A DNA stretch of 64,000 nt from a virus, in IMG/VR virus record IMGVR_UViG_3300025096_000004, positions 1-64,000 of that record, one strand, 5' to 3'. Each line of letters starts with the position of its first letter. Position 1 is the stretch's first letter. The notes under the pieces are model-generated. The model was not told where the DNA came from, ran no database searches, and was given only the letters and a program-made list of their open reading frames with translations. Of the stretch, positions 1-24,982 are shown in pieces. A program made the position numbers and the translations under genes.

Positions 1-1
1 C

Positions 2-6777: not shown

Positions 6778-6820
6778 GGACATTTTCTGTCCTCGACAAT
6801 CTGGTTGAACAGGTTATATT
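6778..6820 (+). promoter_or_regulatory. Boxed promoter 1
   Basis: GGACA-ttttc-TGTCC, TCGACA-16-TATATT. Confidence 0.85.
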
Positions 6821-6840
6821 ATTAATACATTGGAGGTCAA

Positions 6841-7026
6841 ATGAAAAAAGAAAACAATGAAATTACTATCAAGATTAACGTGTCTGATGCCATGCTTTCA
6901 GCAATAGCGAATGTTTTGGTCATGACGAGTTCGCCCAAGCTACCACAAGCTCTTATGACACTGAAGTCTACTACTACCCTGCCCCCCTCACCCCCCTTGG
7001 GCTTCCGAGCAAAAGGGGGTAATTAG
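6841..7026 (+). CDS. Hypothetical protein
   Basis: GGAGG SD after the boxed promoter. Confidence 0.6.
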   Translation: MKKENNEITIKINVSDAMLSAIANVLVMTSSPKLPQALMTLKSTTTLPPSPPLGFRAKGGN

Positions 7027-7027
7027 C

Positions 7028-7822
7028 GTGTTTAAATACGCTCACGGAGGCGTGGTTAGGTGTTCATTCTGTGGCGTAAGGGGGCATAATATACGATCTT
7101 GTAAAGATGTTGTTATAGCAGCAACTGATGAGGACAATATATCTTATGACGCACAACAGGTTTATAAAGCCAAGTCCGAGTTGGCCAAGCGAACTGCTCC
7201 AAAGTCCAAACAGGTGAACCAAAGAGGTAAACCTCGTTGCGGTTTTTGCCGATCCACAAAGCACAATAGAAAGAATTGCCGAAGAATGAAAAAGTTCAGA
7301 AACAAGCTTTATAAAGCAAATACAAACTGGCGGAAACATTTTGCAAATAGGGCTAACATTCTTGGTGTGGGACAAGGGGCTTTAATAGAGGCATGTGGTG
7401 TGCCTGTAAATGTGTTGGCGAAGTTTAGTGTTTCACCCACCAAGGGAAGTCATATTGGAATCGTAAATGAATATGATTATGACAATTTAAATGTATTTTG
7501 CAATTACTCTGGTTCATATGATTATAGGTCATCGGCAGATGTAACTGCCAAACTAATAACCACCGGCGGTTTGGTAGATATAAGCATAGGGAAATATATT
7601 GGTGAGGATTTGTTTCGTGAAAACACCCTTTTCGCTCATTGGTGCAAGTTTAAAGTTATAAATCGAAAAGAAATACAGTTTTCAAAGAAGTGGCTGGGGG
7701 ATAAGAACATCCCGATGTTGGATTGGTTGCCCCAAACACACAGTTTTGAAGAGTTACAATCGCTTGGCATTGTTGCGTTTTTAGATTATTGGACAAAAAA
7801 TGTCCTCGACAATAATGAATAG
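7028..7822 (+). CDS. Double CCHC zinc-knuckle protein, paralog 1
   Basis: CSFCGVRGHNIRSC and CGFCRSTKHNRKNC (CX2CX4HX4C). Confidence 0.8.
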   Translation: MFKYAHGGVVRCSFCGVRGHNIRSCKDVVIAATDEDNISYDAQQVYKAKSELAKRTAPKSKQVNQRGKPRCGFCRSTKHNRKNCRRMKKFRNKLYKANTNWRKHFANRANILGVGQGALIEACGVPVNVLAKFSVSPTKGSHIGIVNEYDYDNLNVFCNYSGSYDYRSSADVTAKLITTGGLVDISIGKYIGEDLFRENTLFAHWCKFKVINRKEIQFSKKWLGDKNIPMLDWLPQTHSFEELQSLGIVAFLDYWTKNVLDNNE

Positions 7823-7833
7823 TGGGTTATATT
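7791..7833 (+). promoter_or_regulatory. Boxed promoter 2
   Basis: GGACA-aaaaa-TGTCC, TCGACA-16-TATATT. Confidence 0.85.
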
Positions 7834-7859
7834 AGTTATGTATTCAAACGGGAGGCAAA

Positions 7860-8039
7860 ATGAAATACAATATTATTAAACTTGAACAGCAACCTAAAGG
7901 CTCAGTTCATTGTGGAACTATTCGTTCCGAAGGGAAGGTGGCGACCTATTTAACAAGGTCATCAGCTTATGAAAAGGTGAGCAAACTGAAAACAACTTCG
8001 CCCAATTCGACATTTATTGTGTCGAAGCACTGGAGGTGA
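7860..8039 (+). CDS. Hypothetical protein, 59 aa
   Basis: Hand-translated; GGAGG SD after the boxed promoter. Confidence 0.55.
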   Translation: MKYNIIKLEQQPKGSVHCGTIRSEGKVATYLTRSSAYEKVSKLKTTSPNSTFIVSKHWR

Positions 8040-8042
8040 TTC

Positions 8043-8216
8043 GTGAAAATCGGAGACACCGTTAGGATAAGACCTTCTGGTGAGGTGGGGGTAATTACGG
8101 AAAGTGTAGACCGTGTTATAGGAACACATGTAGACAAATTGCCAAGGTGGGTTGTCCACCTTGCTATAACAATGAGAAATCATATATTTTTAGAGAAGGA
8201 TTTAGAAATAATTTAA
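8043..8216 (+). CDS. MKVGDL-family mini-protein (MKIGDTVR...LEII), 57 aa
   Basis: Hand-translated; GGAGGT SD, GTG start. Confidence 0.7.
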   Translation: MKIGDTVRIRPSGEVGVITESVDRVIGTHVDKLPRWVVHLAITMRNHIFLEKDLEII

Positions 8217-8338
8217 TACTCAGATGGAGGGGTATACAATGAGCAGAATAGTAAAACGGGCAGTCGCCCTGTCCAGAAAAAATAGCGAATGGTATGCAGC
8301 CAGCAGCCAACCAAAACCATTAACCAAAGAGGTGAAAA

Positions 8339-8665
8339 ATGAAAACAAAGAGATACAAAAGGGTCGTGTGTAAAGATGGGTTCTCAATGAGCGTTCAAGC
8401 TCATGATGGGGCTTATTGCGAACCAAGAATAGATAATGCAGCAAATTACACAGAGGTAGAAGTCGGCTATCCAACACAGATAGAAGAACTGCTCATGCCT
8501 TGGTGTGAAGACAAAGATAAGCCATGCAATACAGTCTATGGCTATGTCCCTGTCTTCACTGTTCACCTCGTTATAACAAAACATGGTGGTATGGTTGAGG
8601 GTGAGGTTCCAAACGGAGTGTTGCTTTATGATAAAGCCGGACAAAATCTGTCCTCGACAGGATGA
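8339..8665 (+). CDS. Hypothetical phage protein
   Basis: GAGGT SD; 108 aa; reads through boxed promoter 3. Confidence 0.7.
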   Translation: MKTKRYKRVVCKDGFSMSVQAHDGAYCEPRIDNAANYTEVEVGYPTQIEELLMPWCEDKDKPCNTVYGYVPVFTVHLVITKHGGMVEGEVPNGVLLYDKAGQNLSSTG

Positions 8666-8681
8666 CGGAACAGGTTATAAT
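8639..8681 (+). promoter_or_regulatory. Boxed promoter 3
   Basis: GGACA-aaatc-TGTCC, TCGACA-16-TATAAT. Confidence 0.85.
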
Positions 8682-8696
8682 GTAGGAGACTTAGTA

Positions 8697-8912
8697 ATGG
8701 TACACGGGGTTCACTTGGGTATCATTACTTTGTTTTATGCTCCCCGTGGATTGTGGGTAATAAGGCTTGCACATGACGGACAGGAACTTGCCCTATTTAG
8801 GGATGATTTTGAACCATTAAACTATATGGAGAACAATAATGGAAGAACAGATGACAATAATGGAAAAGTTAAGATATGTTCCCAAGGAGGGGGATGTGTT
8901 GATTTATCTTGA
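8697..8912 (+). CDS. Hypothetical SH3-like protein (start uncertain)
   Basis: GGAG upstream of ATG 8697; in-frame VGDLV lies just upstream, overlapping the -10. Confidence 0.45.
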   Translation: MVHGVHLGIITLFYAPRGLWVIRLAHDGQELALFRDDFEPLNYMENNNGRTDDNNGKVKICSQGGGCVDLS

Positions 8913-9084
8913 TGGGTCGCACTTGCAAATCAAAGAGATTAAGAAAACCCACGTTAAACTTGAAAAATCGGGAAGCGGTGAGGATCTTCCTTTGAAGCCC
9001 GTTGCTCACATTAGGTCAGATATGATTAAGAATGAGTGCTTCCTTTGCAGAAGAAAATTGGCGGCACCAAATGAAAACAGGTGA
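8839..9084 (+). CDS. Hypothetical protein ending NENR (cassette-type junction)
   Basis: 3' end overlaps the next cassette start by 14 nt. Confidence 0.55.
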   Translation: MEEQMTIMEKLRYVPKEGDVLIYLDGSHLQIKEIKKTHVKLEKSGSGEDLPLKPVAHIRSDMIKNECFLCRRKLAAPNENR

Positions 9085-9241
9085 TTTGGTAAAAGTACAA
9101 GGACACTGCGTTGAAGAGTATGCCCTGTTGGTAGAAATTGGGGAAAAAGATGGTTGCAATTGGGTGCGGGTTCGCTATTTTGATGGTGAAGAGGAAGTGC
9201 TTCATCCAACACAGGTGAAAAGAGTTAGTGAAAGCAGGTGA
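9071..9241 (+). CDS. MKVGDL-family mini-protein (MKTGDLVKVQGHC...)
   Basis: Conserved start and SESR end; close paralog of 10166-10357. Confidence 0.75.
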   Translation: MKTGDLVKVQGHCVEEYALLVEIGEKDGCNWVRVRYFDGEEEVLHPTQVKRVSESR

Positions 9242-9446
9242 TTTGATATGCTTTGCTTTCAAACCCCCTTTGCGGAGGGTTCCCCCAATGGCAATAGTTG
9301 TCCATGCCTACAAGAGTCATGATTACCTCGAAGGACACGTTGAGGTTGTTTGGATAACTGGTTCGATGGCTGGACAAAGAAAGTGTTACCCCCCTTCAAA
9401 CTTGGTAAAAGTAAAACCGGACATTTTTTGTCCTTTACAACTTTAA
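9228..9446 (+). CDS. MKVGDL-family mini-protein (MKAGDLICF...)
   Basis: GTG start in a 14-nt overlap junction. Confidence 0.7.
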   Translation: MKAGDLICFAFKPPLRRVPPMAIVVHAYKSHDYLEGHVEVVWITGSMAGQRKCYPPSNLVKVKPDIFCPLQL

Positions 9447-9462
9447 GCAAATATGCTATATT
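9419..9462 (+). promoter_or_regulatory. Boxed promoter 4 (variant)
   Basis: GGACA-ttttt-TGTCC, TTTACA-17-TATATT with TGn extension. Confidence 0.8.
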
Positions 9463-9491
9463 ATATATGAACCCCAGAACAAGGAGTTAAC

Positions 9492-9824
9492 ATGGATGTT
9501 TGGGTAGTTATAGATAGATACGATCACAGTGAACACATTGTTACAGTTCACCTGACCGAAAAGGGTGCAATGATTCACACTTATGGTATTTTGCTTGAGT
9601 CTTATGATGGTATTTGTGATTCTGTCTGGGATGATAGCGAGGACGACGACTTCAAAGAAGAGTACCCCGATGCTTATGAGTTTGTTAAGAAGTATTGTGG
9701 AAACATCGAAGAGGCCAAGCTTGCCGATTTGAGCAAGCATCAAGTTGATTTGACCTGTTTTATTGGAAATGCTACCGACTGGTCAACCGATGTATCAATT
9801 GAACAAACACGGCTGCAAGCATGA
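9492..9824 (+). CDS. Acidic hypothetical protein
   Basis: AGGAG SD after the boxed promoter. Confidence 0.65.
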   Translation: MDVWVVIDRYDHSEHIVTVHLTEKGAMIHTYGILLESYDGICDSVWDDSEDDDFKEEYPDAYEFVKKYCGNIEEAKLADLSKHQVDLTCFIGNATDWSTDVSIEQTRLQA

Positions 9825-9994
9825 AGGTCGGTGATTTAGTGAAACTGATACACAGCCTTTATGGTGGTTATGGCATCATTACCAATATAAGAGACTGGCC
9901 TAACAGTTCCTCCATCTGGTATACGGTTCACTGGCAAAACGGTGTAACACGGGAGACATACGAAGCTGATGAATTGGAGGCAGTATGCAAGTAG
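9821..9994 (+). CDS. MKVGDL-family mini-protein, 57 aa
   Basis: Hand-translated MKVGDLVKLI...GIITNI...YTVHW...LEAVCK. Confidence 0.75.
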   Translation: MKVGDLVKLIHSLYGGYGIITNIRDWPNSSSIWYTVHWQNGVTRETYEADELEAVCK

Positions 9995-10179
9995 GTGACT
10001 TAATCAAATGGACAGACTATAAAGGTGATACCCCCGTGGGGCATGTTGGCCTACTTATCAAAGACCTAAAGGACTATTGGTCAAACCCATCGGACTGGAA
10101 CGATTTCTACGTCCTTTGTGAAGGTCAGTATGTCTTTTGGACTTCATGGCAATGCGAGGTGTATAATGGAAGTAAATGA
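9985..10179 (+). CDS. MKVGDL-family mini-protein (MQVGDLIKW...)
   Basis: GGAGG SD inside the upstream cassette end. Confidence 0.75.
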   Translation: MQVGDLIKWTDYKGDTPVGHVGLLIKDLKDYWSNPSDWNDFYVLCEGQYVFWTSWQCEVYNGSK

Positions 10180-10357
10180 TTTAGTTAAGGTGCGAGGTCA
10201 CTGTGTTGAAGAGTACGCCCTCTTAATTGAAATAGAAGGAAAGAGCGGATGCAACTGGGTACGGGTGCGGTATTTTGACGGGGAGGAAGAGATACTTCAC
10301 CCAACCCAGATAACCCCAGTTAAGAAAACCGGACAAAATATGTCCTCGACAAGTTAA
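10166..10357 (+). CDS. MKVGDL-family mini-protein (MEVNDLVKVRGHC...)
   Basis: Paralog of 9071-9241; reads through boxed promoter 5. Confidence 0.75.
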   Translation: MEVNDLVKVRGHCVEEYALLIEIEGKSGCNWVRVRYFDGEEEILHPTQITPVKKTGQNMSSTS

Positions 10358-10373
10358 GGGAACAGGTTATATT
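10331..10373 (+). promoter_or_regulatory. Boxed promoter 5
   Basis: GGACA-aaata-TGTCC, TCGACA-16-TATATT. Confidence 0.85.
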
Positions 10374-10401
10374 ATAAGCATAACCCAAGCAGAGGTGACT
10401 T

Positions 10402-10605
10402 ATGAAAGTCGGTGATTTAATTGGTATCGGATGGAGCGGAGTGTGGAAACAGCCTTTTGTAGCAGTGATAAGAGAGGTACACTGTTTCCGAAAACACATG
10501 ACCAAAAAAGGCGAAATCAGTGGTTATACTGTTTTCATTCCAGCTACAGGAAAAGAAACATTCATAACCCCAAGAGATGTGAGGAGTCTAAATGAAGATA
10601 GGTGA
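10402..10605 (+). CDS. MKVGDL-family mini-protein
   Basis: MKVGDLIG...LNEDR. Confidence 0.75.
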   Translation: MKVGDLIGIGWSGVWKQPFVAVIREVHCFRKHMTKKGEISGYTVFIPATGKETFITPRDVRSLNEDR

Positions 10606-10759
10606 TTTAATAAAATACAAACATCGTTACATAGGGGAGCAATTTGTAGTTGTGGGTATCCGCAATTTCGGTAAAGCTGCCGCTGTGAAGTGCATATCAG
10701 CCAAAACCCTGAAAAAAACCAGATGGTCTTGTTCATCAACTGTTGAGGTACTCGCATGA
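10592..10759 (+). CDS. MKVGDL-family mini-protein, 55 aa
   Basis: Hand-translated MKIGDLIKY...VEVLA. Confidence 0.75.
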   Translation: MKIGDLIKYKHRYIGEQFVVVGIRNFGKAAAVKCISAKTLKKTRWSCSSTVEVLA

Positions 10760-10977
10760 AAAAGAATAAGTTCAAGATAGGTGATTTGATAACGATGTCT
10801 GCTGCTGGTCGCAATCTGTCGAGCAATTGGGCGTACAAAGGGGAAATGGGCATCATTGTCCAGATAATGTCAAATGTTGAGAACCCTTATCAAATACGAT
10901 GGATTCGATCAAAGTGGCGAAGAGCAGCTTGGTACAAGCAATATGAGCTAAAGTTTGTCAAACCGGACAAAAAATGA
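10756..10977 (+). CDS. MKVGDL-family mini-protein (MKKNKFKIGDLI...)
   Basis: ATGA overlap; GIIV and YQIRW strands. Confidence 0.7.
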   Translation: MKKNKFKIGDLITMSAAGRNLSSNWAYKGEMGIIVQIMSNVENPYQIRWIRSKWRRAAWYKQYELKFVKPDKK

Positions 10978-11007
10978 CCTCGACAAGTCGAGACAACAAG
11001 TTATATT
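10965..11007 (+). promoter_or_regulatory. Boxed promoter 6
   Basis: GGACA-aaaaa-TGACC, TCGACA-16-TATATT. Confidence 0.8.
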
Positions 11008-11037
11008 ATATATGAACCTCAAAAAAAGGAGATAAAA

Positions 11038-11853
11038 ATGCAATGTGGATATTGTTACAATTACGGACACAACAAAATGGGATGCCCTAAAGCAAAAGAA
11101 AGGGCTGCTACCATCCTACCCCAGTGGGAGCAGTGGCAGAAGATGGAGCATGACAACGACTATGTCAAAACCTCGACATATAAAGCTGCTCGTCACTTTG
11201 AATGGGAATACAAATATCGCGAAGCTCTTGATATACATCTTCAAAAGCAGAAGCGCAGCACAAAAGTTAAGGTTTGCAATTTCTGCGGTCAATCCGGCCA
11301 CAACAAAAGAACCTGCCAAGAGCTTAAAGACTTTAAGGGCGAAATAAAACAAGCAACCATCGCCTATAGAAAGACCGTCATCAATGCTATCTCCGAAACT
11401 GGACAGGGCATTGGCAGCATGTTTACGGGTGAATATTCACATTGGAATCGTCATAAGGGCGAATATGATGAGGGAAAGCAGGGCATCGCTTTGGTTACTG
11501 GTATCAAGTGGCACTTGATTAACTTGGTTGATGTTCGGGAGCATGGAGAAATCAGCCTCAATCGCAGTGTCAGTGAACCTATTTTTGAAGTTAGATGGAC
11601 TCATGGTTTCGTTGAGTCTCATGTTCCGTTTGTCAATTATAGTATTGACAACCAGTCAGTACTAAGTGTCAGTTGGAGAGGCTCAGATAAAAAACTACTT
11701 GCCCCCTCTAAAACTGTAACCCCACCCGACGGTTGGGCAACTTGCGATGATTCGCTTTCCCAACGTCATTTGTCCAAAGTTCTTTCTGGTCGCAAGTCTC
11801 AAAGAAAGAACCAGCTTGAGTACTTTCGAGGAAAAATGAACCAGTGGAAGTAA
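11038..11853 (+). CDS. Double CCHC zinc-knuckle protein, paralog 2
   Basis: CGYCYNYGHNKMGC and CNFCGQSGHNKRTC. Confidence 0.8.
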   Translation: MQCGYCYNYGHNKMGCPKAKERAATILPQWEQWQKMEHDNDYVKTSTYKAARHFEWEYKYREALDIHLQKQKRSTKVKVCNFCGQSGHNKRTCQELKDFKGEIKQATIAYRKTVINAISETGQGIGSMFTGEYSHWNRHKGEYDEGKQGIALVTGIKWHLINLVDVREHGEISLNRSVSEPIFEVRWTHGFVESHVPFVNYSIDNQSVLSVSWRGSDKKLLAPSKTVTPPDGWATCDDSLSQRHLSKVLSGRKSQRKNQLEYFRGKMNQWK

Positions 11854-11856
11854 ACC

Positions 11857-11899
11857 GGACAGAATCTGTCCTCGACAAGTTAAGAGAACAGGTTACATT
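11857..11899 (+). promoter_or_regulatory. Boxed promoter 7
   Basis: GGACA-gaatc-TGTCC, TCGACA-16-TACATT. Confidence 0.85.
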
Positions 11900-11928
11900 A
11901 TATACATCACTCAAGCAATGGAGGTCGG

Positions 11929-12234
11929 ATGAACGACCAAGCTATAACAAACCTAATTAAAGTCCTGCTCAACGGTTCGGACGCATCTTATCGACTCAAG
12001 CGACAAATTACCAACGCTCTTGACCCTGACAATGTGGCCATCTGGTGGCATGTTTCCGATGTTGAACATATCGCAGCAAAAGAAGAAGAAGCCTATGGTG
12101 AAGCTGTCGGCTCAATCTATGACCGCTCACAGTTCCACGACTTGCTGGAGGATGTCTGCGGAAACTCCGAGTATGGGGTGACTGTCGAGACAATTGAAGA
12201 TACCCTTAACTATTACAAACAGGAAGGTGCGTAA
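11929..12234 (+). CDS. Hypothetical protein
   Basis: GGAGGT SD. Confidence 0.65.
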   Translation: MNDQAITNLIKVLLNGSDASYRLKRQITNALDPDNVAIWWHVSDVEHIAAKEEEAYGEAVGSIYDRSQFHDLLEDVCGNSEYGVTVETIEDTLNYYKQEGA

Positions 12235-12578
12235 TGGGATACCGTTCAGACGTTATATTCTGGGTTCACAAGTCATTGGTCAGCAGATTGCTAACAATGA
12301 CCAACCAAGACAAAGAAGCTTTCAATGTCCTTTTCAAATGGGCAGACCTCGAAAAAGACAAAGAGGGTAACATGAAGTTTGACATAGGCCACATCAAATG
12401 GTATGATGCCTATGGAGGCGTTGCAGCCATCGAAGGCTTTATGTGTGACTTGGAAGCTGAAGACGAAGAGTGGGGCTTTGGCTTTCACAGACTTGGTGAA
12501 GAGTTTGGCGACCACGAACAACGTGGACAGTCCGAGCTTTGGGAAGTGTACCCAATGCAGAGTCTGTCATGCAATTGA
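12234..12578 (+). CDS. Hypothetical phage protein (MGYRSDV...)
   Basis: TAATG coupling with the upstream gene. Confidence 0.7.
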   Translation: MGYRSDVIFWVHKSLVSRLLTMTNQDKEAFNVLFKWADLEKDKEGNMKFDIGHIKWYDAYGGVAAIEGFMCDLEAEDEEWGFGFHRLGEEFGDHEQRGQSELWEVYPMQSLSCN

Positions 12579-12586
12579 TATTTTAT

Positions 12587-12728
12587 GGGGATGCCCTGCG
12601 CCAGCGCACACTGGCAATGGGGTTGAAACGGTGGTTCCAGTTGTGCGACTCGCACCGCCTCAGTTGATGGATCGACTGGCTGCACTCAAGGTGTGGTTGG
12701 AGCGTGGGTTCGACTCCCACCATCCCCT
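12587..12728 (+). ncRNA. tRNA-like structured RNA, 142 nt (unassigned)
   Basis: GGGGATG/CATCCCC acceptor-like stem plus GTGGG-TTCGACT-CCCAC T arm; several internal hairpins; no canonical D or anticodon arm; intergenic. Confidence 0.6.
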
Positions 12729-12739
12729 TTCACTTTTTC

Positions 12740-12782
12740 GGACATTTTCTGTCCTCGACAAGTCGAGACAATATGTTATATT
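12740..12782 (+). promoter_or_regulatory. Boxed promoter 8
   Basis: GGACA-ttttc-TGTCC, TCGACA-16-TATATT. Confidence 0.85.
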
Positions 12783-12811
12783 ATATATGAACCTCAAAGA
12801 AAGGAGCTAAC

Positions 12812-13192
12812 ATGGCTTATTTAAAACCAAACATGACAGTATTCATGGCCAACAACGGCCAGCCCATCTATTCAACAATTGAGAAGATTGCCTTCCGCAA
12901 GTATTGGGGAAAGAAGCGAGACAAGAAAACAGGACTGATGAAAAAAGCAAGAAAATCAATGCCTTATGCGATTTGTACTGTTAAAATGTCATCTGATACC
13001 GACATACCCACGGGGGCGCAATTCACAATCGCTGGCTATCAGCTTCGCAACGTGATTATGAAAGGTGAGAAAATCCTGACCTTCGACCAAAAGTATGTGG
13101 CAGACTTCGCCCAAGAGTACGGTAACAAGTGGGTCAGACGCATGATTATTGAAGAGTTCAAGCATGATGGTGATGACAATGAAAGTCGGTGA
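12812..13192 (+). CDS. Basic hypothetical protein ending NESR
   Basis: AGGAG SD; 3' end forms the junction into a cassette array. Confidence 0.7.
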   Translation: MAYLKPNMTVFMANNGQPIYSTIEKIAFRKYWGKKRDKKTGLMKKARKSMPYAICTVKMSSDTDIPTGAQFTIAGYQLRNVIMKGEKILTFDQKYVADFAQEYGNKWVRRMIIEEFKHDGDDNESR

Positions 13193-14201: not shown

Positions 14202-14244
14202 GGACAGAATATGTCCTCGACAATTCAACCAAACAGGTTACATT
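14202..14244 (+). promoter_or_regulatory. Boxed promoter 9
   Basis: GGACA-gaata-TGTCC, TCGACA-16-TACATT. Confidence 0.85.
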
Positions 14245-15515: not shown

Positions 15516-15558
15516 GGACATTTTCTGTCCTCGACAATCTGACCAAACAGGTTAGATT
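15516..15558 (+). promoter_or_regulatory. Boxed promoter 10
   Basis: GGACA-ttttc-TGTCC, TCGACA-16-TAGATT. Confidence 0.85.
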
Positions 15559-15587: not shown

Positions 15588-16421
15588 ATGAACATATTTG
15601 AAAACAACGGAAGTGGCCGAAGCACATCAGCTTGCGGCTATTGCAGAACCACCGGACACGACATTAGGGACTGCCCACAGGTTCCCAAAGATTATGCCTA
15701 TTGGAAAGACTACAAAGTACCGCTTCAAGCTGGCAATCCCTGTCGCTGGTTCGCTGCTAATCAGCCCAAGTACTGGGGCGAGTGGTACACCAAGTGCATC
15801 AACGCCATGCACAGACAGCTTGAATATCAAAAGAAGAAGAACCAACCAAAAGTTAAGCGCACCTCTTATCCTCGTTCTTGCGGCTTCTGCGGTGAACTTG
15901 GACATACCCGTCGAAAGTGTCAGAAGATGAAGACCTTCTTGGTCGAAGCTTATCAAGCCAATGAGAACTGGCGACGAAAAGCCTATGAAGCTTTGGTCAA
16001 CAATCTTGGTATTTCTGTCGGTGCTGCTATAAAAGTTAAGAAAAGTGCTGGGTATCACTACGGTGCAGAGGCAACAGAGCATGTAGCCTTGGTGTCTTCG
16101 GTCAATTGGGATAAGTTAAACCTGTCCTGTGCCAATCAAACATGGGAAGACCAGTGGAGACAGCACCTCAGTGTGGAAGTCCTTCTCAACGGTCAAACCC
16201 TCACACTAAGGTTTGCAGACAGACTGCTTGAACCTGTTTTCCGTCACATTTCTGGCTATAGTGGTGTCACTTATCTTGATAAGGTCGCCCCTGCTCCAAA
16301 GCCCCTTGATGAGTCTTGGGTCACTGACTACAAAGAAGCTTTCGACTTCATCGCAAAGAAGCGCAGCTATGAAAGGCTTGAGCAAGCGGGTATCGTCGCT
16401 CTTGTCGAGAAGTGGAAATAA
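15588..16421 (+). CDS. Double CCHC zinc-knuckle protein, paralog 3
   Basis: CGYCRTTGHDIRDC and CGFCGELGHTRRKC. Confidence 0.8.
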   Translation: MNIFENNGSGRSTSACGYCRTTGHDIRDCPQVPKDYAYWKDYKVPLQAGNPCRWFAANQPKYWGEWYTKCINAMHRQLEYQKKKNQPKVKRTSYPRSCGFCGELGHTRRKCQKMKTFLVEAYQANENWRRKAYEALVNNLGISVGAAIKVKKSAGYHYGAEATEHVALVSSVNWDKLNLSCANQTWEDQWRQHLSVEVLLNGQTLTLRFADRLLEPVFRHISGYSGVTYLDKVAPAPKPLDESWVTDYKEAFDFIAKKRSYERLEQAGIVALVEKWK

Positions 16422-16423: not shown

Positions 16424-16466
16424 GGACATTTTCTGTCCTCGACAACTGTCGAGGATAGGTTATATT
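16424..16466 (+). promoter_or_regulatory. Boxed promoter 11
   Basis: GGACA-ttttc-TGTCC, TCGACA-16-TATATT. Confidence 0.85.
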
Positions 16467-17823: not shown

Positions 17824-17989
17824 TTTGGTATCAGCCCCGAAGAGTCAATTTGATGACTTTGACATGAAGCAGTTCTTTGGTTTGGTTGTCTGGACGGATG
17901 GCTACAAGGTCACTCTTCTTGTCGATGGGCTGGAAGAAACATGGACAACCTTTGACCTCAAAGCGATAGGCGCAAAGGTCATAAGTTAA
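17810..17989 (+). CDS. MKVGDL-family mini-protein, 59 aa (array-terminal)
   Basis: Hand-translated MKVGDLVSAP...AKVIS. Confidence 0.75.
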   Translation: MKVGDLVSAPKSQFDDFDMKQFFGLVVWTDGYKVTLLVDGLEETWTTFDLKAIGAKVIS

Positions 17990-17992
17990 ACC

Positions 17993-18035
17993 GGACAATT
18001 TCTGTCCTCGACAATCTGGCTGAACAGGTTATATT
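17993..18035 (+). promoter_or_regulatory. Boxed promoter 12
   Basis: GGACA-atttc-TGTCC, TCGACA-16-TATATT. Confidence 0.85.
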
Positions 18036-18059
18036 ATATACATCACAAGGAAAGCTAAC

Positions 18060-18242: not shown

Positions 18243-18245
18243 ACC

Positions 18246-18288
18246 GGACAGAAATTGTCCTCGACAACTCGCCAAAACTAATTATATT
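18246..18288 (+). promoter_or_regulatory. Boxed promoter 13
   Basis: GGACA-gaaat-TGTCC, TCGACA-16-TATATT. Confidence 0.85.
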
Positions 18289-18337
18289 ATATACATCAAA
18301 CAAAAACTTTCTTTAACCCCCCAATCTGGAGTCCATC

Positions 18338-19396
18338 ATGGCAGTAGATTTTAAAACATTCCTCTCAGTCGTTCCTCACATCGTCGCAGCACGATTCCCA
18401 ATCCTTACCCGAGGCCGCCACGGTATCGGGAAATCCACTGTGGTTTATCAGCTTGCAGACAGCATGGGTCTTCCAGTTGTCGAGCGTCGAGCTTCACAGA
18501 TGACCGAAGGTGACCTCTTGGGTCTGCCGAAGGTCGAAGGTAATATCACAAAGTGGCTTGCTCCAGAGTGGCTCCATGAAGCTTGTAATAAGCCTGTAGT
18601 CCTCTTCCTCGATGAAGTTGACCGAGCGACGATGGAAGTCCGACAGGGCATCTTTGAGCTTTGCGATTCTCGTAAAATCGCTGGCTATGAGCTTCATCCA
18701 GATACCATCATCTTTGCTGCCGTCAACGGTGGACAGCATGGAGCGCAGTACCAAGTCGGTGAAATGGATCCAGCGGAGCTTGACCGTTACACTGTCTTTG
18801 ACCTTGAGCCTTCAATTGAAGATTGGCTGATTTGGGCTAAAGACAACGTAGTTCAAGAGATTTGGGACTTCATCAACCATAATCATGGTCACTTGGAGCA
18901 CAACGATGACTATGAACCTAACAAGGTTTATCCTTCTCGTCGCTCTTGGGAACGTCTTTCTAAGACCTTGACCTCGATGGGGAAGGACATCGAATCCTCT
19001 CCGGTTCTCTATCAGCTTGCCTGTGCTTTCATCGGCTTTGAAGGTGCTGTAGCTTTCAATGACTTCATGAAGAACTATGAACGTCAAGTCACTATCGAGA
19101 ACATCCTTGATGAAGGTAAGCTTGAATTGACCAAAGATTGGAAAATCAATGACCATAACTCTCTTATCGAGAAGTTCAAGGCCAAAGAGGTTTTCAATGA
19201 GAAGCTCGATGACAATCGTTTGCAGAACCTTGCAAACTACTTTGTCACCCTTCCTTCTGAGATTGCCATGACCCTTTGGCAAGTAATGGGAACCACCGAG
19301 TTCGCCACCTACAACGTGGCAAAGCTCCACAACCTCACTGCTTCTTGTGGAACCGTTGTTCAAGACTTCATCGTCGAAATCTTGACCGCAAAATAA
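18338..19396 (+). CDS. MoxR-like AAA+ ATPase
   Basis: Walker A GRHGIGKS, Walker B LFLDEVDRA, sensor AAVN, DPAELDR, PSRRSW. Confidence 0.85.
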   Translation: MAVDFKTFLSVVPHIVAARFPILTRGRHGIGKSTVVYQLADSMGLPVVERRASQMTEGDLLGLPKVEGNITKWLAPEWLHEACNKPVVLFLDEVDRATMEVRQGIFELCDSRKIAGYELHPDTIIFAAVNGGQHGAQYQVGEMDPAELDRYTVFDLEPSIEDWLIWAKDNVVQEIWDFINHNHGHLEHNDDYEPNKVYPSRRSWERLSKTLTSMGKDIESSPVLYQLACAFIGFEGAVAFNDFMKNYERQVTIENILDEGKLELTKDWKINDHNSLIEKFKAKEVFNEKLDDNRLQNLANYFVTLPSEIAMTLWQVMGTTEFATYNVAKLHNLTASCGTVVQDFIVEILTAK

Positions 19397-19401
19397 GAAA
19401 C

Positions 19402-19444
19402 GGACAAAAACTGTCCTCGACAATAGTCGAGGACATGTTATATT
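19402..19444 (+). promoter_or_regulatory. Boxed promoter 14
   Basis: GGACA-aaaac-TGTCC, TCGACA-16-TATATT. Confidence 0.85.
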
Positions 19445-19474
19445 ATATATGAACCCAATCAATGGAGGTCTTTC

Positions 19475-20650
19475 ATGGCTTTTGATTTAGATAAACACAC
19501 TTGGCGACTCCTTCAGAATGAGCCTTTCTTTGCCGCTCTCTCTCGTCGCATCCACAAGACACCGACAACAGCTATTCCAACCGCTGGTGTTAAGTTAAAC
19601 CCTGAGACTGCACAGTTTGAAATGATTTACAATCCTGAGTTCTTTGAGAAGCTGGAAGATAATCATAAGCTTGGAGTCTTGATGCACGAATACTATCACA
19701 TCATCTTTGAGCATGTCACTGGTCGCTTGCCACCGGAAGGCATGAACATGATGTGGAATATTGCGACTGACCTTGCAATCAATTCACACCTCAAAGGCAT
19801 GTTACCCGAAGGGTGCTGTATGCCCGAACAAGACCGTTTTGAAGAGTATCCTTCTGGCAAGTCTGCTGAGTGGTACTATTCAAAGCTACTCAAAGAGCAA
19901 GATGAAGAAGACCAAGACGGCAAAGGCGAAGGTGAAGGGTCAGGCAAAGGCGACCTTTCAGACCAGCAATTCGACAGTCATGAAGGATGGGGCGAAGCTG
20001 ATGAAGATACAAAGCAGATGGCTAAAGAGCGATTGCGTCAAGCAGTCGAAGACTCAGCCAAAGAAGCGCAGAATAAAGGCTCTTGGGGTACAATGTCATC
20101 CGGTATGCGAAAGAAGATTATGGATATGATTACTCCGAAGGTCGATTGGCGCAAGGTTCTTCGATATTTCATCAAAACCTCGCAACGTGCCAACAAGCGC
20201 AGCACAGTTCGACGCATCAACAAGCGTTTTCCTTACATCCACGCTGGAAAGAAGGTACAACGTCAGGCGAAGATAGCTATCTCCATCGACCAGTCAGGCT
20301 CAGTCTCTGACAAGATGCTTGCTGCGTTCTTTGCCGAGCTTAACACTTTGGCGAAGCTTGCCGAGTTCACTGTCATTCCCTTCGATACCGAAGTAGCCGA
20401 AGATAAGGTCTATGTCTGGAAAAAGAACCAGAACAAGCCTTGGGAACGTGTCCTTTGCGGTGGAACCTGTTTCGATGCTCCGACAAAGTATGTCAACAAG
20501 GGAAGCTTTGATGGTCATATCGTCTTAACCGACATGTGCGCTCCAAAGCCTGTTTCTTCCAAGTGCCAGCGCATGTGGATGACAGACAACGAAAACGCTC
20601 GAAATCCGTACTTTACAACCAATGAACGGGTTATAGCCATAGAAGCCTAA
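19475..20650 (+). CDS. Putative metallopeptidase plus vWA-like domain protein (DUF2201-type)
   Basis: HEYYH, WNIATDLAIN, VDWR.VLR, IDQSGS MIDAS, GGGT-like CGGTCF. Confidence 0.85.
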   Translation: MAFDLDKHTWRLLQNEPFFAALSRRIHKTPTTAIPTAGVKLNPETAQFEMIYNPEFFEKLEDNHKLGVLMHEYYHIIFEHVTGRLPPEGMNMMWNIATDLAINSHLKGMLPEGCCMPEQDRFEEYPSGKSAEWYYSKLLKEQDEEDQDGKGEGEGSGKGDLSDQQFDSHEGWGEADEDTKQMAKERLRQAVEDSAKEAQNKGSWGTMSSGMRKKIMDMITPKVDWRKVLRYFIKTSQRANKRSTVRRINKRFPYIHAGKKVQRQAKIAISIDQSGSVSDKMLAAFFAELNTLAKLAEFTVIPFDTEVAEDKVYVWKKNQNKPWERVLCGGTCFDAPTKYVNKGSFDGHIVLTDMCAPKPVSSKCQRMWMTDNENARNPYFTTNERVIAIEA

Positions 20651-20764
20651 ACAATGGCCTATTCAGGCATCTAAGGCGGCTCTGACAGGCTCAGAGGGGT
20701 AGGATGGTGGGAGTTCTTAGATGCCTCACAAACCAATCAATTACAACCAAACAATGGAGACTCT

Positions 20765-21058
20765 ATGTCAAAAAAAATGAAAAACCAACAAGTAATCAAG
20801 GCTTTCTTCAATGGCCGAAAAGCTTGTTCTCACACTTGGAACCTTTCCACAGATGGAGCCAAGCTTTATTCCTATAACCTTGAGATAGCAAGGCGAGACA
20901 CCGAAGGGGGTTATGTAGTCTTTGACTATACAGCACCTGCCGACGGATTTGCTTCACAGACAACCTCTCAGCACGTTGGCATGACCAAGAGAGCAGCACC
21001 ATCCAGACTCACAACCATCATGAGGCCAGATGCCGCAAAGGTCGCAGGTTTAATATAA
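20765..21058 (+). CDS. Hypothetical protein
   Basis: GGAG SD; 97 aa. Confidence 0.65.
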   Translation: MSKKMKNQQVIKAFFNGRKACSHTWNLSTDGAKLYSYNLEIARRDTEGGYVVFDYTAPADGFASQTTSQHVGMTKRAAPSRLTTIMRPDAAKVAGLI

Positions 21059-21060
21059 AC

Positions 21061-21103
21061 GGACATTTTCTGTCCTCGACAATAGTCGAGGATAGGTTAT
21101 ATT
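21061..21103 (+). promoter_or_regulatory. Boxed promoter 15
   Basis: GGACA-ttttc-TGTCC, TCGACA-16-TATATT. Confidence 0.85.
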
Positions 21104-21174
21104 ATATATGTTAAACCCTTTCAGCGGATTCAATTTATGATTCTTTCACTTCTCACATATCTGGAGACACTATT

Positions 21175-21405
21175 ATGCAAAATCTTATTCTTACTCGCCT
21201 CGTTGACGGCTCCAAAGCCGTTATCACCCATTGGGATCACTTTTATGTTAATCGCTCTACTGGTTCCACAATCGACAGGGCTTTTACAATCAAATACCTC
21301 GATGGAGACTATGAAGGTCAAAGCCACTGTTGGTCAATCCACAGTCTTCACACGCTATTCCACATCGTCGGAAAGAACGAGGTCAGCAATGACAAAATCT
21401 CCTAA
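21175..21405 (+). CDS. Hypothetical protein
   Basis: GGAG SD upstream of ATG 21175. Confidence 0.6.
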   Translation: MQNLILTRLVDGSKAVITHWDHFYVNRSTGSTIDRAFTIKYLDGDYEGQSHCWSIHSLHTLFHIVGKNEVSNDKIS

Positions 21406-21733
21406 GTGTGCATATAAACAAGGCGACCTTGTGAACAAGGCAGGGCAAATGGGCATCGTCACCAACACCGACGATACTTTTTACACCTTTCAGTTGCTTG
21501 GCAGTCAACCCATTACTCATACCACGATGAACATCACAGTTAGACACTATCTCAAACTGGTCAAGGCTCAAGAACAGATTACAACTGGCAGGGGCGTTTC
21601 AAGTGACTTCGTTGTAAGGAACCTAACCTTAGAAGAAGAGCTTCTTGAAGGCGACCCACAACCGCTAATCACAGGCAAAGTCAACCGACATGCCGAGAAC
21701 ACTTTAAATAAGTTAAGTCAAGGAGAAGTATAA
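21389..21733 (+). CDS. Hypothetical SH3-like protein (YKQGDLV..MGIV)
   Basis: GAGG SD before ATG 21389; the ORF-track N-terminal extension overlaps another gene. Confidence 0.6.
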   Translation: MTKSPKCAYKQGDLVNKAGQMGIVTNTDDTFYTFQLLGSQPITHTTMNITVRHYLKLVKAQEQITTGRGVSSDFVVRNLTLEEELLEGDPQPLITGKVNRHAENTLNKLSQGEV

Positions 21734-21954
21734 TGAACAGGTTCAATAGAAGCAGAAGAAAGCAAGTCGAAACCTATGAAGTGGGAGCTTTAGTAGAGTA
21801 TCGTTGTGACCCATCTGGAATGGAACCCTTTGACCTGCTGGCTATAGTCTTAGAGTATATGCCCAAAGAGGGCTATTACCTTATTAGGTTCATGGATGAT
21901 GGCTCTACTCTACATTGTGTCCATTCAGAGATATGCCGACCGGAGGCAGTATGA
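21733..21954 (+). CDS. Hypothetical SH3-like protein (YEVGALVEY)
   Basis: AGGAG SD; ATGA junction to the next cassette. Confidence 0.6.
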   Translation: MNRFNRSRRKQVETYEVGALVEYRCDPSGMEPFDLLAIVLEYMPKEGYYLIRFMDDGSTLHCVHSEICRPEAV

Positions 21955-22151
21955 AGATAGGAAGCTTGGTAAGGTTCAACCCACCGCTTGGAGCATCCGA
22001 ATTGGGTGAACTGTTCATGGTTATTGGGAAGCGTCCAGCAATTTCGCTGAAGAGCGGAGGCGCATGTCCGGAAGCTGTGAAGTGTGTATCGGTTAAGACC
22101 GGAAAGAAAACCCCGTTCGTTCGCACCACTCGCCTCAGTGTGTACGCATGA
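21951..22151 (+). CDS. MKVGDL-family mini-protein
   Basis: MKIGSLVRF...; shares AVKC(I/V)S.KT with 10592-10759. Confidence 0.75.
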   Translation: MKIGSLVRFNPPLGASELGELFMVIGKRPAISLKSGGACPEAVKCVSVKTGKKTPFVRTTRLSVYA

Positions 22152-22315
22152 AGGTGGGTGATTTGGTTAGGCCGTGGAAAGCACAACGAGCAATCGGTCT
22201 TGTGGTCGAGGTCATAAATAAAAAAGAAGTAAAGGTTCAATGGATAGGAAAGAAGAATCAATTGATGTATGCCTATCAGAAACATAAGTTAGAGGTGATT
22301 AATGAAAGTAGGTGA
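22148..22315 (+). CDS. MKVGDL-family mini-protein, 55 aa
   Basis: Hand-translated MKVGDLVRPW...LEVINESR. Confidence 0.8.
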   Translation: MKVGDLVRPWKAQRAIGLVVEVINKKEVKVQWIGKKNQLMYAYQKHKLEVINESR

Positions 22316-22490
22316 CTTGGTAAGGTATGTAAGGGGAGAAGCAGCCAAAGGTTTCGATATGAATGTGATTGGTCTGGTTATCAATGTAGGGAATGACCCA
22401 CTAAGAAACAATAGACCATCTGCTCGTATCCACTGGTTGAATGACTCATGGTCTGTGGAAGCACAGAAGATATTGGAGGTGCTTGCATGA
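22302..22490 (+). CDS. MKVGDL-family mini-protein
   Basis: MKVGDLVRY...LEVLA. Confidence 0.8.
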   Translation: MKVGDLVRYVRGEAAKGFDMNVIGLVINVGNDPLRNNRPSARIHWLNDSWSVEAQKILEVLA

Positions 22491-22660
22491 AAGTAGGTGA
22501 CCTTCTTCGGAGCAAAGACACTGGTCTTATTTGCATAATAAAGAGGATAGAAAAGCCCAAGGAAAGAGGCGGTGTAACTTTATTCTTTTTAGACTGTCAG
22601 TCAATTGTCTGTGGCTATTGGAGTAGGGAAGTGATAACTGATTTTTATCATTTGACCTGA
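22487..22660 (+). CDS. MKVGDL-family mini-protein
   Basis: MKVGDLLRS... Confidence 0.7.
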   Translation: MKVGDLLRSKDTGLICIIKRIEKPKERGGVTLFFLDCQSIVCGYWSREVITDFYHLT

Positions 22661-23357
22661 TACTACCCTACCCCCGTGGGCTGCGCTTTCAGTTATATTT
22701 TTTTGCCTACTACCCCGATACCCCCCTACCCCCGACTGAATCTGCTGACATGTCAATGGGTATTCATGCGGATTGTAGGAGCAAGCCCCCGAAGGGGCTG
22801 CAAGGTTTTTGGAGAAAAGGAGAGAGATGGCTAAGATTTGTGGGATTCAAAGGGTTTATGTTGAATATCGTTGACTTAAATCGACCAAGTGCAAATCTTA
22901 TGCCAATCTCTCAAAAGCGCAGGGCTTCCCTTGTAAATAGCCCATTTGTTATTAAACTCCCACAAATCTCACAAAATATGCCACGGTTTTCAACACTGAG
23001 AAGATACCTCTCATACGCACGAATATCCGCACGATGCACACAGGCTCACACATATACCACACGCATCACACACATAACCCACACGAAACACGCATGTATT
23101 CACTCACGCATAATGCACGTTGCACCTCGCATATCACGCACATACACGTTACGCATAACAAACCTTGTGACACAAAGTTATGCCACTTGGCTCAAAGCTC
23201 TTGACACAGGTGTTACGGCCTCTAAGGGAAAGCTTCATTAACCCCTTGATTTTCCTACGCTTTTTGAATCATCAAAAGTCTTGACGGAACCCAGTGTTAT
23301 GCAGCGAATAAGTTAAACCTTCAGGTAATTTCGAGGGTTTCTCTTGACGCGTCAAAA

Positions 23358-23465
23358 ACTTGACATAACTATGGAACGGTAAAATACTTGACATAACTAT
23401 GGAAAATTATGGAAACCCAAATACTTGACATAACTATAGGATGGGAAAATACTTGACATAACTAT
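23358..23465. repeat. Four direct copies of ACTTGACATAACTAT (iteron-like)
   Basis: Copies at 23358, 23386, 23423 and 23451; start-to-start spacing 28, 37 and 28 bp. Confidence 0.9.
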
Positions 23466-23530
23466 AGGATGAAGCTGGCTTCACCGCTCAGAGTGCTTCC
23501 AGCGGAGGGCATAAGAAAAAACTTCAAAAC

Positions 23531-23574
23531 GGACATATTTTGACCGTGACATTTTGCTCTTGCCGTGATACATT
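23531..23574 (+). promoter_or_regulatory. Boxed promoter 16 (variant)
   Basis: GGACA-tattt-TGACC, GTGACA-17-TACATT. Confidence 0.7.
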
Positions 23575-23624
23575 ATAGTATGAAAAGAAAAAACTTTTCA
23601 TGTTTTGAAAATAATGGAGAACAT

Positions 23625-24119
23625 ATGTCAATCAAAACTTTGGATACTCAACAATTAATCAATCTCTGCGGACTTGACCTTTCAGGTAAAGGTGGAAAGG
23701 AAAACGAGATTGCGAAGGCTCTTGGACATGAACGTAATCATCAACCTCTTGTGGACGCTAAGTGTCCTAAATCTGGTGTACTCTATGAGTACAAAAAGCA
23801 ATCTGGCACTCAATGGTTTGACCTGCATAAGCTGGCCAACCTCACCAAAGAACAGGCTCAGGTCGCTGTCCTCTTCGTGGTTCACAAAGGTGGCAAGTTC
23901 ATCGGCCTGTATCAGACAACCTATCAAGGAGTCAAGAACTCCATCGGTCTTAAACCAGCGGATTGGGCATGGGCTAAGAAAGCTCCAGCCGGAGCACAGG
24001 TTAAGTATGCTCTCAAATTGGCTCAAATCAAGAAGTTCACTTGTTTGACCTACAGTTCGGAACGGTTCATTGATGACCAGACAGGCCGAGTATCTTGGGA
24101 GAACTCAGCTAAAAAATAA
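23625..24119 (+). CDS. Hypothetical protein, possible PD-(D/E)XK nuclease
   Basis: GGAG SD; E..IA, LVDAK...YEYKKQ pattern. Confidence 0.5.
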   Translation: MSIKTLDTQQLINLCGLDLSGKGGKENEIAKALGHERNHQPLVDAKCPKSGVLYEYKKQSGTQWFDLHKLANLTKEQAQVAVLFVVHKGGKFIGLYQTTYQGVKNSIGLKPADWAWAKKAPAGAQVKYALKLAQIKKFTCLTYSSERFIDDQTGRVSWENSAKK

Positions 24120-24128
24120 TTTCATTTC

Positions 24129-24182
24129 GGACATATTCTGTCCGCTTGTCACTTGACAAACCCCTCAAAAATATGGTATAAT
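24129..24182 (+). promoter_or_regulatory. Boxed promoter 17 (box 9 bp upstream of -35)
   Basis: GGACA-tattc-TGTCC-9-TTGACA-18-TATAAT. Confidence 0.8.
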
Positions 24183-24569
24183 ATAGTATACCCTGAAGAC
24201 ATGGAGTTAAAATGTCAAATCAACCAGAAACCCCCTTCCAATCTTTTATCGCAGCTTGCGGCTTTGTCCTCTTTGTCGCTGCTCTGCTTGTTGTCACGAT
24301 ATGAGGAATCGGCTCAAGCAATTAGCCTTCGGCTTTTCGATGGCTTCACTCATTTACACTTATCTTATTATCAATTCATTCCGTCGAGGTAAACATGGAA
24401 AATACAACTCTAACAAAAGCACAGCGCATGGTCGAAAACATGATGATTTCATGGGCTATTCAAGATGCCATCAACCAGAAGGCAATTCACCCAACTCCGG
24501 AGCAACAGAAGGCAATCGAATTAATGATTGCAACACTCGCGGAACACTTCCAACCTGCGGAGGCATAAG

Positions 24570-24833
24570 ATGAGCTTGTATCAACTTACAAAAGAAGCCC
24601 GAGAAGAGGCAACCCGAACAGCTTGCACTCATTTCGTTGTTGTCATTCGGGAGCCTCTCAAAAACGGTGGCTTTGAATACGACTATGACATCTTTCAACA
24701 GGTCGATTATGAAGACCCAGACGTTACAGTCGTTAGGGAATGTCGGCCAGACTTTAAAAAGCATCAAGAAATGCACGGACTCAATGACCATCTTTTTAAA
24801 AAAGGTGTTCGCAACTTTGTTAAAACCCGATAG
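24570..24833 (+). CDS. Hypothetical protein
   Basis: GGAGG SD. Confidence 0.55.
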   Translation: MSLYQLTKEAREEATRTACTHFVVVIREPLKNGGFEYDYDIFQQVDYEDPDVTVVRECRPDFKKHQEMHGLNDHLFKKGVRNFVKTR

Positions 24834-24929
24834 GAGACTCTATGTCACGAAGAACAAAACTTACCCTCGCCTTGACTGCCGACATCATATGTTGGTCAAC
24901 CTTAATTTATTTCCTTTTATTTTAATAAC

Positions 24930-24982
24930 GGACACAATCTGTCCGGTTTGGGTTTGACAAGACCCTCAAAAAATGTTATATT
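24930..24982 (+). promoter_or_regulatory. Boxed promoter 18 (box 9 bp upstream of -35)
   Basis: GGACA-caatc-TGTCC-9-TTGACA-17-TATATT. Confidence 0.8.

Follow-up and report, generated by a model that had tools for sequence, protein, structure and literature searches.

A helically phased palindromic box at the cassette promoters of an uncultured marine T4-like phage: a candidate operator in a PeSL-like setting

Introduction

In the work of Arbiol et al. 2010 (PMC2839356) and Comeau et al. 2014 (PMC4122927), the hyperplastic regions of T4-type phages were found to carry promoter-early stem-loop (PeSL) units, whose stems are lineage-specific and which lie on either side of ORFans and bring about shuffling. 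Such units have been described for the T4-type myoviruses RB49/phi1, PST/T4 and nt-1/KVP40 (PMC2839356, PMC4122927). Here we analyse a comparable arrangement in bases 1-64000 (the window, to which coordinates refer unless stated otherwise) of the 191,495-bp IMG/VR phage contig IMGVR_UViG_3300025096_000004, the whole of which is referred to as G000. Within this window a 15-bp palindromic box, GGACA-N5-TGWCC, precedes a series of cassette promoters. From its placement and conservation we propose, with a probability of roughly 0.45, that the box is the operator of a dimeric protein that would aid host sigma-70 RNA polymerase at these promoters.

Activator sites of similar placement include those of CRP and FNR at -41.5 and -61.5, of lambda cI at PRM, of Mu Mor and C at -43.5, and of Fis at proP P2 at -41. 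In T4 a MotA monomer recognises the asymmetric box TGCTT at -30, and the type 1 operator of the Rrf2 protein IscR has GACT-N5-AGTC arms set in a 25-bp dyad. To our knowledge, most T4-like phages that do not belong to the enterobacterial group are without MotA and AsiA, and the timing and co-ordination of their accessory early genes are poorly known. The core site of Fis covers 15 bp: position -7 is G and +7 is C, a pyrimidine-purine step falls at +/-3-4, the central bases are A/T, and G is excluded at -8 (Hancock et al. 2016, PMC4784862). A literature search on the palindromic motif itself returned nothing relevant.

Results and Discussion

The box is confined to one block and heads its promoters

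The window holds 19 sites matching GGACA-N5-TGWCC (35 strand matches), where shuffled sequences led us to expect 0.14 and never gave more than 2. A motif scan of the whole genome, proposed as a check in an earlier sequence-only reading of this DNA, placed every exact site within 6778-24944, a stretch of about 18 kb. Near-matches, defined as sites with W allowed at both half-sites or with one mismatch, numbered only three in the genome, at 23753, 79248 and 111752 (one variant of the first kind and two of the second). All but one of the 19 boxes head a sigma-70-type promoter, and the 18-kb block that they occupy consists of small plus-strand genes. Each unit starts a few bases past the stop codon of the preceding gene and is followed by a strong Shine-Dalgarno sequence and then by one to eight small plus-strand genes.

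We distinguish class A units, in which the box abuts the -35 hexamer, from class B units, in which a 9-bp gap separates the two. The sequence-only reading had described 14 boxes as abutting TCGACA with a 16-bp spacer and TA(T/C/G)A(T/A)T, and two others as lying 9 bp ahead of a perfect TTGACA; both descriptions are borne out, the latter pair (24129 and 24930) having spacers of 18 and 17 bp. The remaining two abutting units are those at 9419 (TTTACA, 17 bp) and 23531 (GTGACA, 17 bp).

Box-free promoters of the same genome offer an internal comparison. Those at 5909, 38634, 44467, 54314, 57123 and 26769 have, as had been claimed, TTGACA and a 17-bp spacer; the first five lie on the plus strand with TATATT or TATAAT as the -10, whereas 26769 belongs to the minus strand and is a perfect TTGACA-17-TATAAT. 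Genome-wide there are about 20 box-free TTGACA-17 promoters, in which an A-tract ending in AAC or TAC stands directly ahead of TTGACA. In the box units this tract, as "aaaac", precedes the box, and the box therefore reads as a 15-bp insert between an UP-like tract and the -35 hexamer.

The genome has a CheckV completeness of 100%. Its TerL shares 47% identity with the terminase of a T4-like Flavobacterium phage, 44% with that of a Microcystis phage and 32% with those of cyanomyoviruses. The sequencing runs that contain its DNA are marine metagenomes. The box-bearing phage is an uncultured marine T4-like phage. A megablast search against 50,697 GenBank phages yielded no close DNA relative, and tblastn with a 1510-aa protein of the phage gave no match.

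The box is conserved while the adjoining hexamer drifts

Relatives were found by way of the DUF2201 protein, G001 and G002 being 73-76% identical. G001 carries 17 boxes in about 16 kb and G002 carries 15 boxes in 14 kb, with none elsewhere in either genome. Both keep the box, the 22 or 23 bp to the -10 element, and the -10 element itself, and the hexamer after the box is TGGACT or TGGATA in G001 and TACCCA, which is not -35-like, in G002. A scan with the pattern box-N22/23-TAYATTA recovered 62 loci in about 45 viral contigs. In 239 abutting units from 34 contigs, each with at least two units, strong conservation upstream of the promoter is limited to the ten arm bases. The five bases between the arms are 93% A/T, a T stands right after the box, and the next hexamer is lineage-specific across the 34 contigs (TCGACA, TTTACA, TTGACT, TTGACA, TTGATT, TGGACT or TACCCA).

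In 596 Gb of bacterial and archaeal genomes (185,579 species genomes) the composite of box and promoter gave 86 scattered single hits in unrelated taxa, which point to no particular host. By our own rough estimate about 70 matches would be expected by chance in a data set of this size. The hits being near chance, the composite is specific to the phage clade.

More distant relatives lack the box and have in its place either an A-tract with TTGACA or three direct copies of TTGACA. The latter arrangement is seen in L011 (IMGVR_UViG_3300017753_000273), for example at 1230-1296, where each cassette promoter has its -35 plus two upstream TTGACA copies; these three copies are a different solution at the same upstream position. 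In G009 (IMGVR_UViG_3300030330_004956) many homologous cassettes, at 133-142 kb and 143.9-145.4 kb, stand under another promoter consensus, TTGAATAAA-N13/14-TCGTATAAT, without boxes. That genome has only six boxes, among them two tandem pairs at 144769/144786 and 145414/145429. Since many of its cassettes are under TTGAATAAA...TCGTATAAT, the box is an add-on to cassette promoters rather than an obligatory part of them.

Box positions are phased with the promoter

Wherever positions relative to the start of transcription are stated here, the start is assumed to lie about 7 nt past the -10 element, so that such positions are sequence arithmetic. The distance from the end of the box to the -10 element is 22 or 23 bp in 218 cases, 31-33 bp in 39 and 43 bp in 8, with about a dozen others at 15-61 bp. 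The gaps between box and -35 are accordingly 0, 9-10 or 20 bp, and the box centres fall near -42/-43, -52/-53 and -63, on one face of the helix. A further apparent class, with the box in the spacer (distance 2), proved to be an artefact in which TACAAT falls inside TTTACAAT. An abutting box spans -49/-50 to -35/-36. The class II geometry assigned by the sequence-only reading, with a box from -49 to -35 centred at -42, is arithmetically right under the start-site assumption given above.

The sequence of the -35 hexamer differs with the position of the box. Of 241 abutting units just 10 have exact TTGACA, as compared with 33 of 48 distal units, the latter comprising 25 of 40 at the one-turn gap and 8 of 8 at the two-turn gap. 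Perfect TTGACA is thus avoided only beside an abutting box, which favours activation over repression without proving activation. The phasing and the erosion of the -35 beside the box together make activation the likelier of the two. The proposal of a degraded -35 holds as a clade-wide tendency, given the scarcity of exact TTGACA and a 16-bp spacer in 70% of the 241 abutting units. However, 153 of the 241 abutting hexamers match the -35 consensus at five of six positions, so that the weakness is mild as well as lineage-specific, and in some relatives the box abuts TTGACT or TTGACA with a 17-bp spacer; "deliberately weak" is therefore too strong a term. A TGn extended -10 is mostly absent from units whose -35 matches at no more than three positions, and it is no systematic backup for poor hexamers.

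These features resemble those of class II and class I activator sites, in that a dyad suited to a dimer lies near -42 and abuts a sub-consensus -35, and in that the alternative box positions lie whole helical turns upstream. The box sequence, however, is unrelated to the CRP, FNR, Mor and C sites, the box also occurs near -52, an unusual position for CRP, and many box-abutting promoters are only one base off consensus, unlike class II activator promoters. There is likewise a resemblance to the MotA/AsiA middle promoters of T4, where in a T4-type phage an upstream box may replace the canonical -35 of a promoter with a sigma-70 -10 element. Here too the box differs in sequence and position, and the box promoters are gathered in one ORFan block rather than spread across replication genes. 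MotA_activ and AsiA gave no six-frame match at E<=0.1, but control genomes were likewise silent, so that this absence is not proven.

The same operator could act in the opposite direction, with a phage-made dimer that, once the first minutes have passed, would silence the early cassette promoters by barring the approach of the alpha-CTD (the C-terminal domain of the alpha subunit) and sigma region 4. We regard this as somewhat unlikely. It would agree with a box that abuts or just precedes otherwise near-consensus sigma-70 promoters, with the tandem boxes of G009, with the clade-specific putative DNA-binding proteins described below, and with the A-tract that box-free early promoters hold at the box position, since an occupied box would then displace UP-element contacts. 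On the other hand, boxes at -52 and -63 miss the core elements and yet are strictly phased, and simple occlusion needs no phasing; moreover, the avoidance of perfect TTGACA only where the box abuts is what an activator, rather than a repressor, predicts.

The palindrome is more probably a protein operator than a hairpin

In its overall architecture the block is of the PeSL kind and represents no new category. As with PeSL units, it lies in a hyperplastic region of small ORFans in a T4-like phage; a repeated header of about 50-70 bp, made up of an inverted repeat, a sigma-70 early promoter and a Shine-Dalgarno sequence, precedes one to several genes; arm sequence is lineage-specific; and units are shuffled among relatives. 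This kinship had escaped the sequence-only reading. As in the PeSLs of RB49, some units also have a strong stem-loop between -35 and -10. Specifically, three to five units, including 16424, 19402 and 21061, have a 10-12-bp spacer stem-loop that reuses the proximal arm of the box and is followed by a T-rich tail.

The box itself differs from PeSL stems in several respects. Its palindrome has fixed 5-bp arms, an A/T-only centre and no U tract; it tolerates uncompensated arm changes, and the distances that separate it from the -35 are quantised and helically phased; and it is conserved across the whole clade while the promoter hexamer drifts. On these grounds the box behaves as a protein operator and not as a terminator hairpin. 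Folded as RNA, an intact box reaches only about -6 kcal/mol, and variant boxes -0.6 to -2 kcal/mol. Variation in the arms is nearly all A/T at arm position 3, where 43 units differ in a single arm as compared with 8 in both, so that pairing is evidently not maintained, and 18% of units have an uncompensated half-site change in mid-stem. An RNA hairpin or terminator was therefore rejected as the main function of the box, on the weak 5-bp stem, the absent U tract and the uncompensated arms. Taken together, the uncompensated arms, the A/T-only centre, the invariance across diverged genomes and the promoter phasing argue for a dimeric protein operator. These four features fit a dimer that would contact two major grooves on either side of a narrowed minor groove, and they do not suit a structural hairpin. 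The idea of one dimeric factor governing one regulon, put forward in the sequence-only reading, agrees with a symmetric box that stays invariant across the clade as its flanks drift.

Comparison among relatives shows an operator-promoter unit that would serve, PeSL-like, as a portable repeated boundary for cassette exchange. Homologous first genes lie 54-121 bp past a box in G001, G002, G006 and G007, and the order of the units is scrambled among these genomes and G000. In some contigs from other samples a box is fused with the -10 region of a different unit (for example 9435>18278, 21076>18273 and 15536>23564), which is weak evidence because the metagenome alignments were of low stringency; such joints are no more than suggestive of the mini-circles that recombination between PeSL units yields. 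One might accordingly ask whether the box is simply a PeSL stem-loop without a dedicated regulator, its RNA or DNA hairpin attenuating or stabilising upstream transcripts and its uniformity arising mainly from cassette-recombination homology. The match to T4-type PeSL architecture (PMC2839356, PMC4122927), the conserved spacing of first genes despite scrambled order, the fused contigs, weak as they are, and the spacer stem-loops with their T-rich tails all speak for such a reading. We nevertheless consider it quite improbable. The stem is short and weak and lacks a U tract, nearly a fifth of units carry the uncompensated mid-stem mismatch, and neither the A/T-only centre nor the quantised 0/9-10/20-bp distances would be expected of a hairpin. 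Furthermore, concerted evolution would cover identity within a genome, but not the invariance of ten bases over about 45 diverged contigs with differing hexamers.

The box resembles Fis and, less closely, IscR sites

Among characterised binding sites, the box comes close to that of Fis. All intact boxes carry every published feature of the Fis core, including CA/TG steps at +/-3-4 and five central A/T base pairs, and in the flanks position -8 is mostly C and +8 is T. Positions -6/-5 and +5/+6, by contrast, are invariant in the box and degenerate for Fis. Compared by eye with the IscR type 1 operator, the box shares GAC-N7-GTC but has A/T rather than T/A at the inner arm position and G/C rather than Y/R at the outer one, and identity with that operator was rejected on these two positions.

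A host global regulator, either Fis or an Rrf2/IscR-like protein reading the GAC-N7-GTC arms, might bind the boxes, the roughly 18 high-affinity sites acting as a sensor or a sponge. A slowly evolving host reader would explain more easily why the box is invariant while phage proteins diverge to 35-75% identity, and the fit to the Fis core points the same way. The composite, however, is not a repeated motif in the 185,579 species genomes searched, Fis leaves the invariant G-6/A-5 unexplained, and at the inner arm position, where the box has A, the type 1 consensus of IscR calls for T; we therefore hold a host regulator of this kind to be decidedly doubtful.

Candidate readers encoded by the phage

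Pfam and PHROGs searches with about 60 proteins from clade-specific genes found no helix-turn-helix (HTH) domain, and a six-frame scan of the genome for HTH_3, Sigma70_r4, RHH_1, Bac_DNA_binding (HU) and HTH_17 gave no match. A first candidate reader or modulator of the box is a 129-aa protein encoded at 44081..44470 on the plus strand. HTH_8 scores 13.2 bits on this protein, below the cut-off of 22 (E 0.02), and this is the sole HTH_8 hit in six frames; its best PDB profile hit is Fis (E 0.022). An AlphaFold model has a predicted local distance difference test (pLDDT) score of 77, and in a Foldseek search Fis chains occupy 14 of the first 15 ranks, with target-normalised template-modelling (TM) scores mostly of 0.53-0.65, probabilities of 0.9-1.0, and E-values of 0.07-0.3 for the best ranks. 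The model thus predicts a Fis-like four-helix fold. A homodimer prediction scored 0.34, against a mark of 0.42.

All seven of the nearly complete genomes with boxes have the gene, as do several fragments with boxes, and all four complete genomes without a box cluster lack it. The family, which comprises 1,201 clusters in metagenomes, conserves an N-terminal basic segment and the helical core. About 30 other genes share the same clade-specific distribution, and this, along with the variable recognition helix described below, makes the Fis-like protein a lead and not an assignment. The share of GGTCA half-sites varies smoothly from 0 to 60% between contigs, with no switch that could be matched to protein variants.

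A second candidate DNA binder is a clade-specific 108-aa protein encoded outside the window at G000 182700-183026 (L065:18700-19026). Judged by eye, its N-terminus is ribbon-helix-helix (RHH)-like, with a strand KKIVFDD, a helix, G-L-S-Q and a further helix. In a protein atlas it has neighbours of the RHH clan (0.89-0.91), among them RHH_1, RHH_3 and NikA-like clusters; a PDB sequence search with this protein gave no hit.

Other proteins were considered and set aside. The gene that most often accompanies box clusters encodes a 78-aa protein (5676-5912) with a Tudor/SH3-like fold, but its matches to RNA polymerase-binding Tudor domains (the UvrD C-terminus and CarD/CdnL) are weak, and it was rejected as the reader. 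Its gene is overlapped by one for a 239-aa trypsin-like serine protease, the pair occupying 4960-5912 at the upstream edge of the box cluster and recurring in 22-24 related contigs. A 96-aa protein with a weak Mnt hit is instead a membrane-anchored coiled coil. Finally, a 234-aa protein (38682-39386) was rejected as a regulator, being enzyme-like with a capsid-leader-like N-terminus. It has invariant His, Asp and Glu residues and an N-terminal MKxLxENWRxYLxE, stands behind a perfect TTGACA-17 promoter, and occurs in abundance in metagenome data, those of Tara Oceans included.

Proposed activation by a bound dimer and its difficulties

In the mechanism that we favour, a two-fold symmetric dimer would dock on the 15-bp palindrome at the hypervariable early-cassette promoters and help polymerase there, either through a class-II/class-I-like contact or through Fis-like bending of upstream DNA, so that some 18 promoters would fire as one block. 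The reader could be a host Fis-type protein or the phage Fis-like protein of 44081-44470. Such help to polymerase would explain why drift of the box-adjacent -35 from TTGACA is tolerated.

Several observations weigh against this activator mechanism and its candidate readers. Many relatives have boxes abutting near-consensus promoters (TTGACT or TTGACA, 17 bp) that would be expected to fire unaided, and the G002 lineage with TACCCA carries TGn extended -10 boxes. An operator that touches the zone of the -35 and UP element could equally block polymerase. The single RNA run containing the region (6% of words) yields a few 151-nt contigs from both strands, with no ends visible. As to the reader, the G-6/A-5 that is invariant in the box is no requirement for E. 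coli Fis; in the phage Fis-like family the equivalents of Fis Asn84/Arg85, and the whole recognition helix with them, are variable and often Glu or otherwise acidic, though the box is invariant; and among the phage proteins none with a conserved DNA-reading surface was found.

A more specific version can be envisaged for a clade without MotA and AsiA, in which the phage's own Fis-like dimer, from a previously unrecognised family of more than 1,200 metagenome clusters, would act alone or on host Fis, docking at -42/-52/-63 and licensing sub-optimal sigma-70 promoters, with the unit doubling as a recombination linker. In this full form the proposal is unlikely; a linker of that kind, if real, would let new cassettes plug into the regulon. 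Independently of the reader's identity, the entire block of accessory genes in dozens of abundant marine phages is marked by one highly specific cis-element, which is placed as though to cooperate directly with RNA polymerase. A reader protein, if found, would reveal a new regulatory circuit in ocean phages and account for the immediate control of newly acquired ORFan cassettes, and the box would then provide a sequence tag for hyperplastic regions, probably of host-takeover or anti-defence function, in metagenomes.

Individual units of the block

The 18 box coordinates given by the sequence-only reading are all correct, and one copy had been missed. This extra box, GGACAACCTTTGACC at 17943..17957 (plus strand, as are all the units below), lies within coding sequence, 50 bp ahead of the box at 17993, and has no promoter. 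Class A units with TCGACA, a 16-bp spacer and TATATT are found at 6778..6820, 7791..7833, 10331..10373, 12740..12782 and 17993..18035, and those at 8639..8681 (TATAAT), 11857..11899 and 14202..14244 (both TACATT) and 15516..15558 (TAGATT) differ from them in the -10 alone. The unit at 9419..9462 has TTTACA-17-TATATT.

The remaining units with a box directly ahead of TCGACA-16-TATATT have further features. The unit at 10965..11007, whose box has the TGACC variant half-site, stands before a CCHC zinc-knuckle paralogue and is predicted to drive it. At 16424..16466 a 12-bp stem-loop in the spacer (16432-16459) reuses the promoter-proximal half-site, and at 21061..21103 the spacer has a 12-bp stem-loop at 21069-21096. 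The unit at 18246..18288 lies ahead of an AAA ATPase gene, homologues of which stand 82-121 bp downstream of a box in relatives, and the unit at 19402..19444, with a 10-bp spacer stem-loop at 19412-19435, lies ahead of the DUF2201/VWA gene.

Toward the downstream end of the block, the unit at 23531..23574 combines a TGACC variant box with GTGACA-17-TACATT. The two class B units follow: at 24129..24182 the 9-bp gap leads to TTGACA-18-TATAAT, with the box centre at about -53, and at 24930..24982 to TTGACA-17-TATATT, with the centre at about -52. Right after the -10 of the units at 23531 and 24930 there is a conserved inverted repeat, ATGAAAAG...CTTTTCAT, at 23579-23602 and 24987-25010. Its position corresponds to the predicted 5' leader, and class B units of G002 have related leaders.

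Neighbouring genes and minor observations

Phage proteins rarely have zinc knuckles of the retroviral CCHC type, whose usual ligand is single-stranded nucleic acid. The block encodes three paralogues of 264-277 aa, at 7028-7822, 11038-11853 and 15588-16421, each with two such knuckles (C-x2-C-x4-H-x4-C). Members of the family are found in 18 contigs with boxes, where they often head the genes that follow a box, and mini-protein arrays also accompany box clusters.

At the ends of the assembly, window 1-200 and G000 191296-191495 share a stretch that, judged by eye, is largely alike, which suggests that tandem paralogous genes span the two ends of a circularly permuted assembly. A ClpS-like adaptor (Pfam ClpS, E 3e-26) is encoded at 2703-3023, beside a metallophosphoesterase and a short way upstream of the cassette region.

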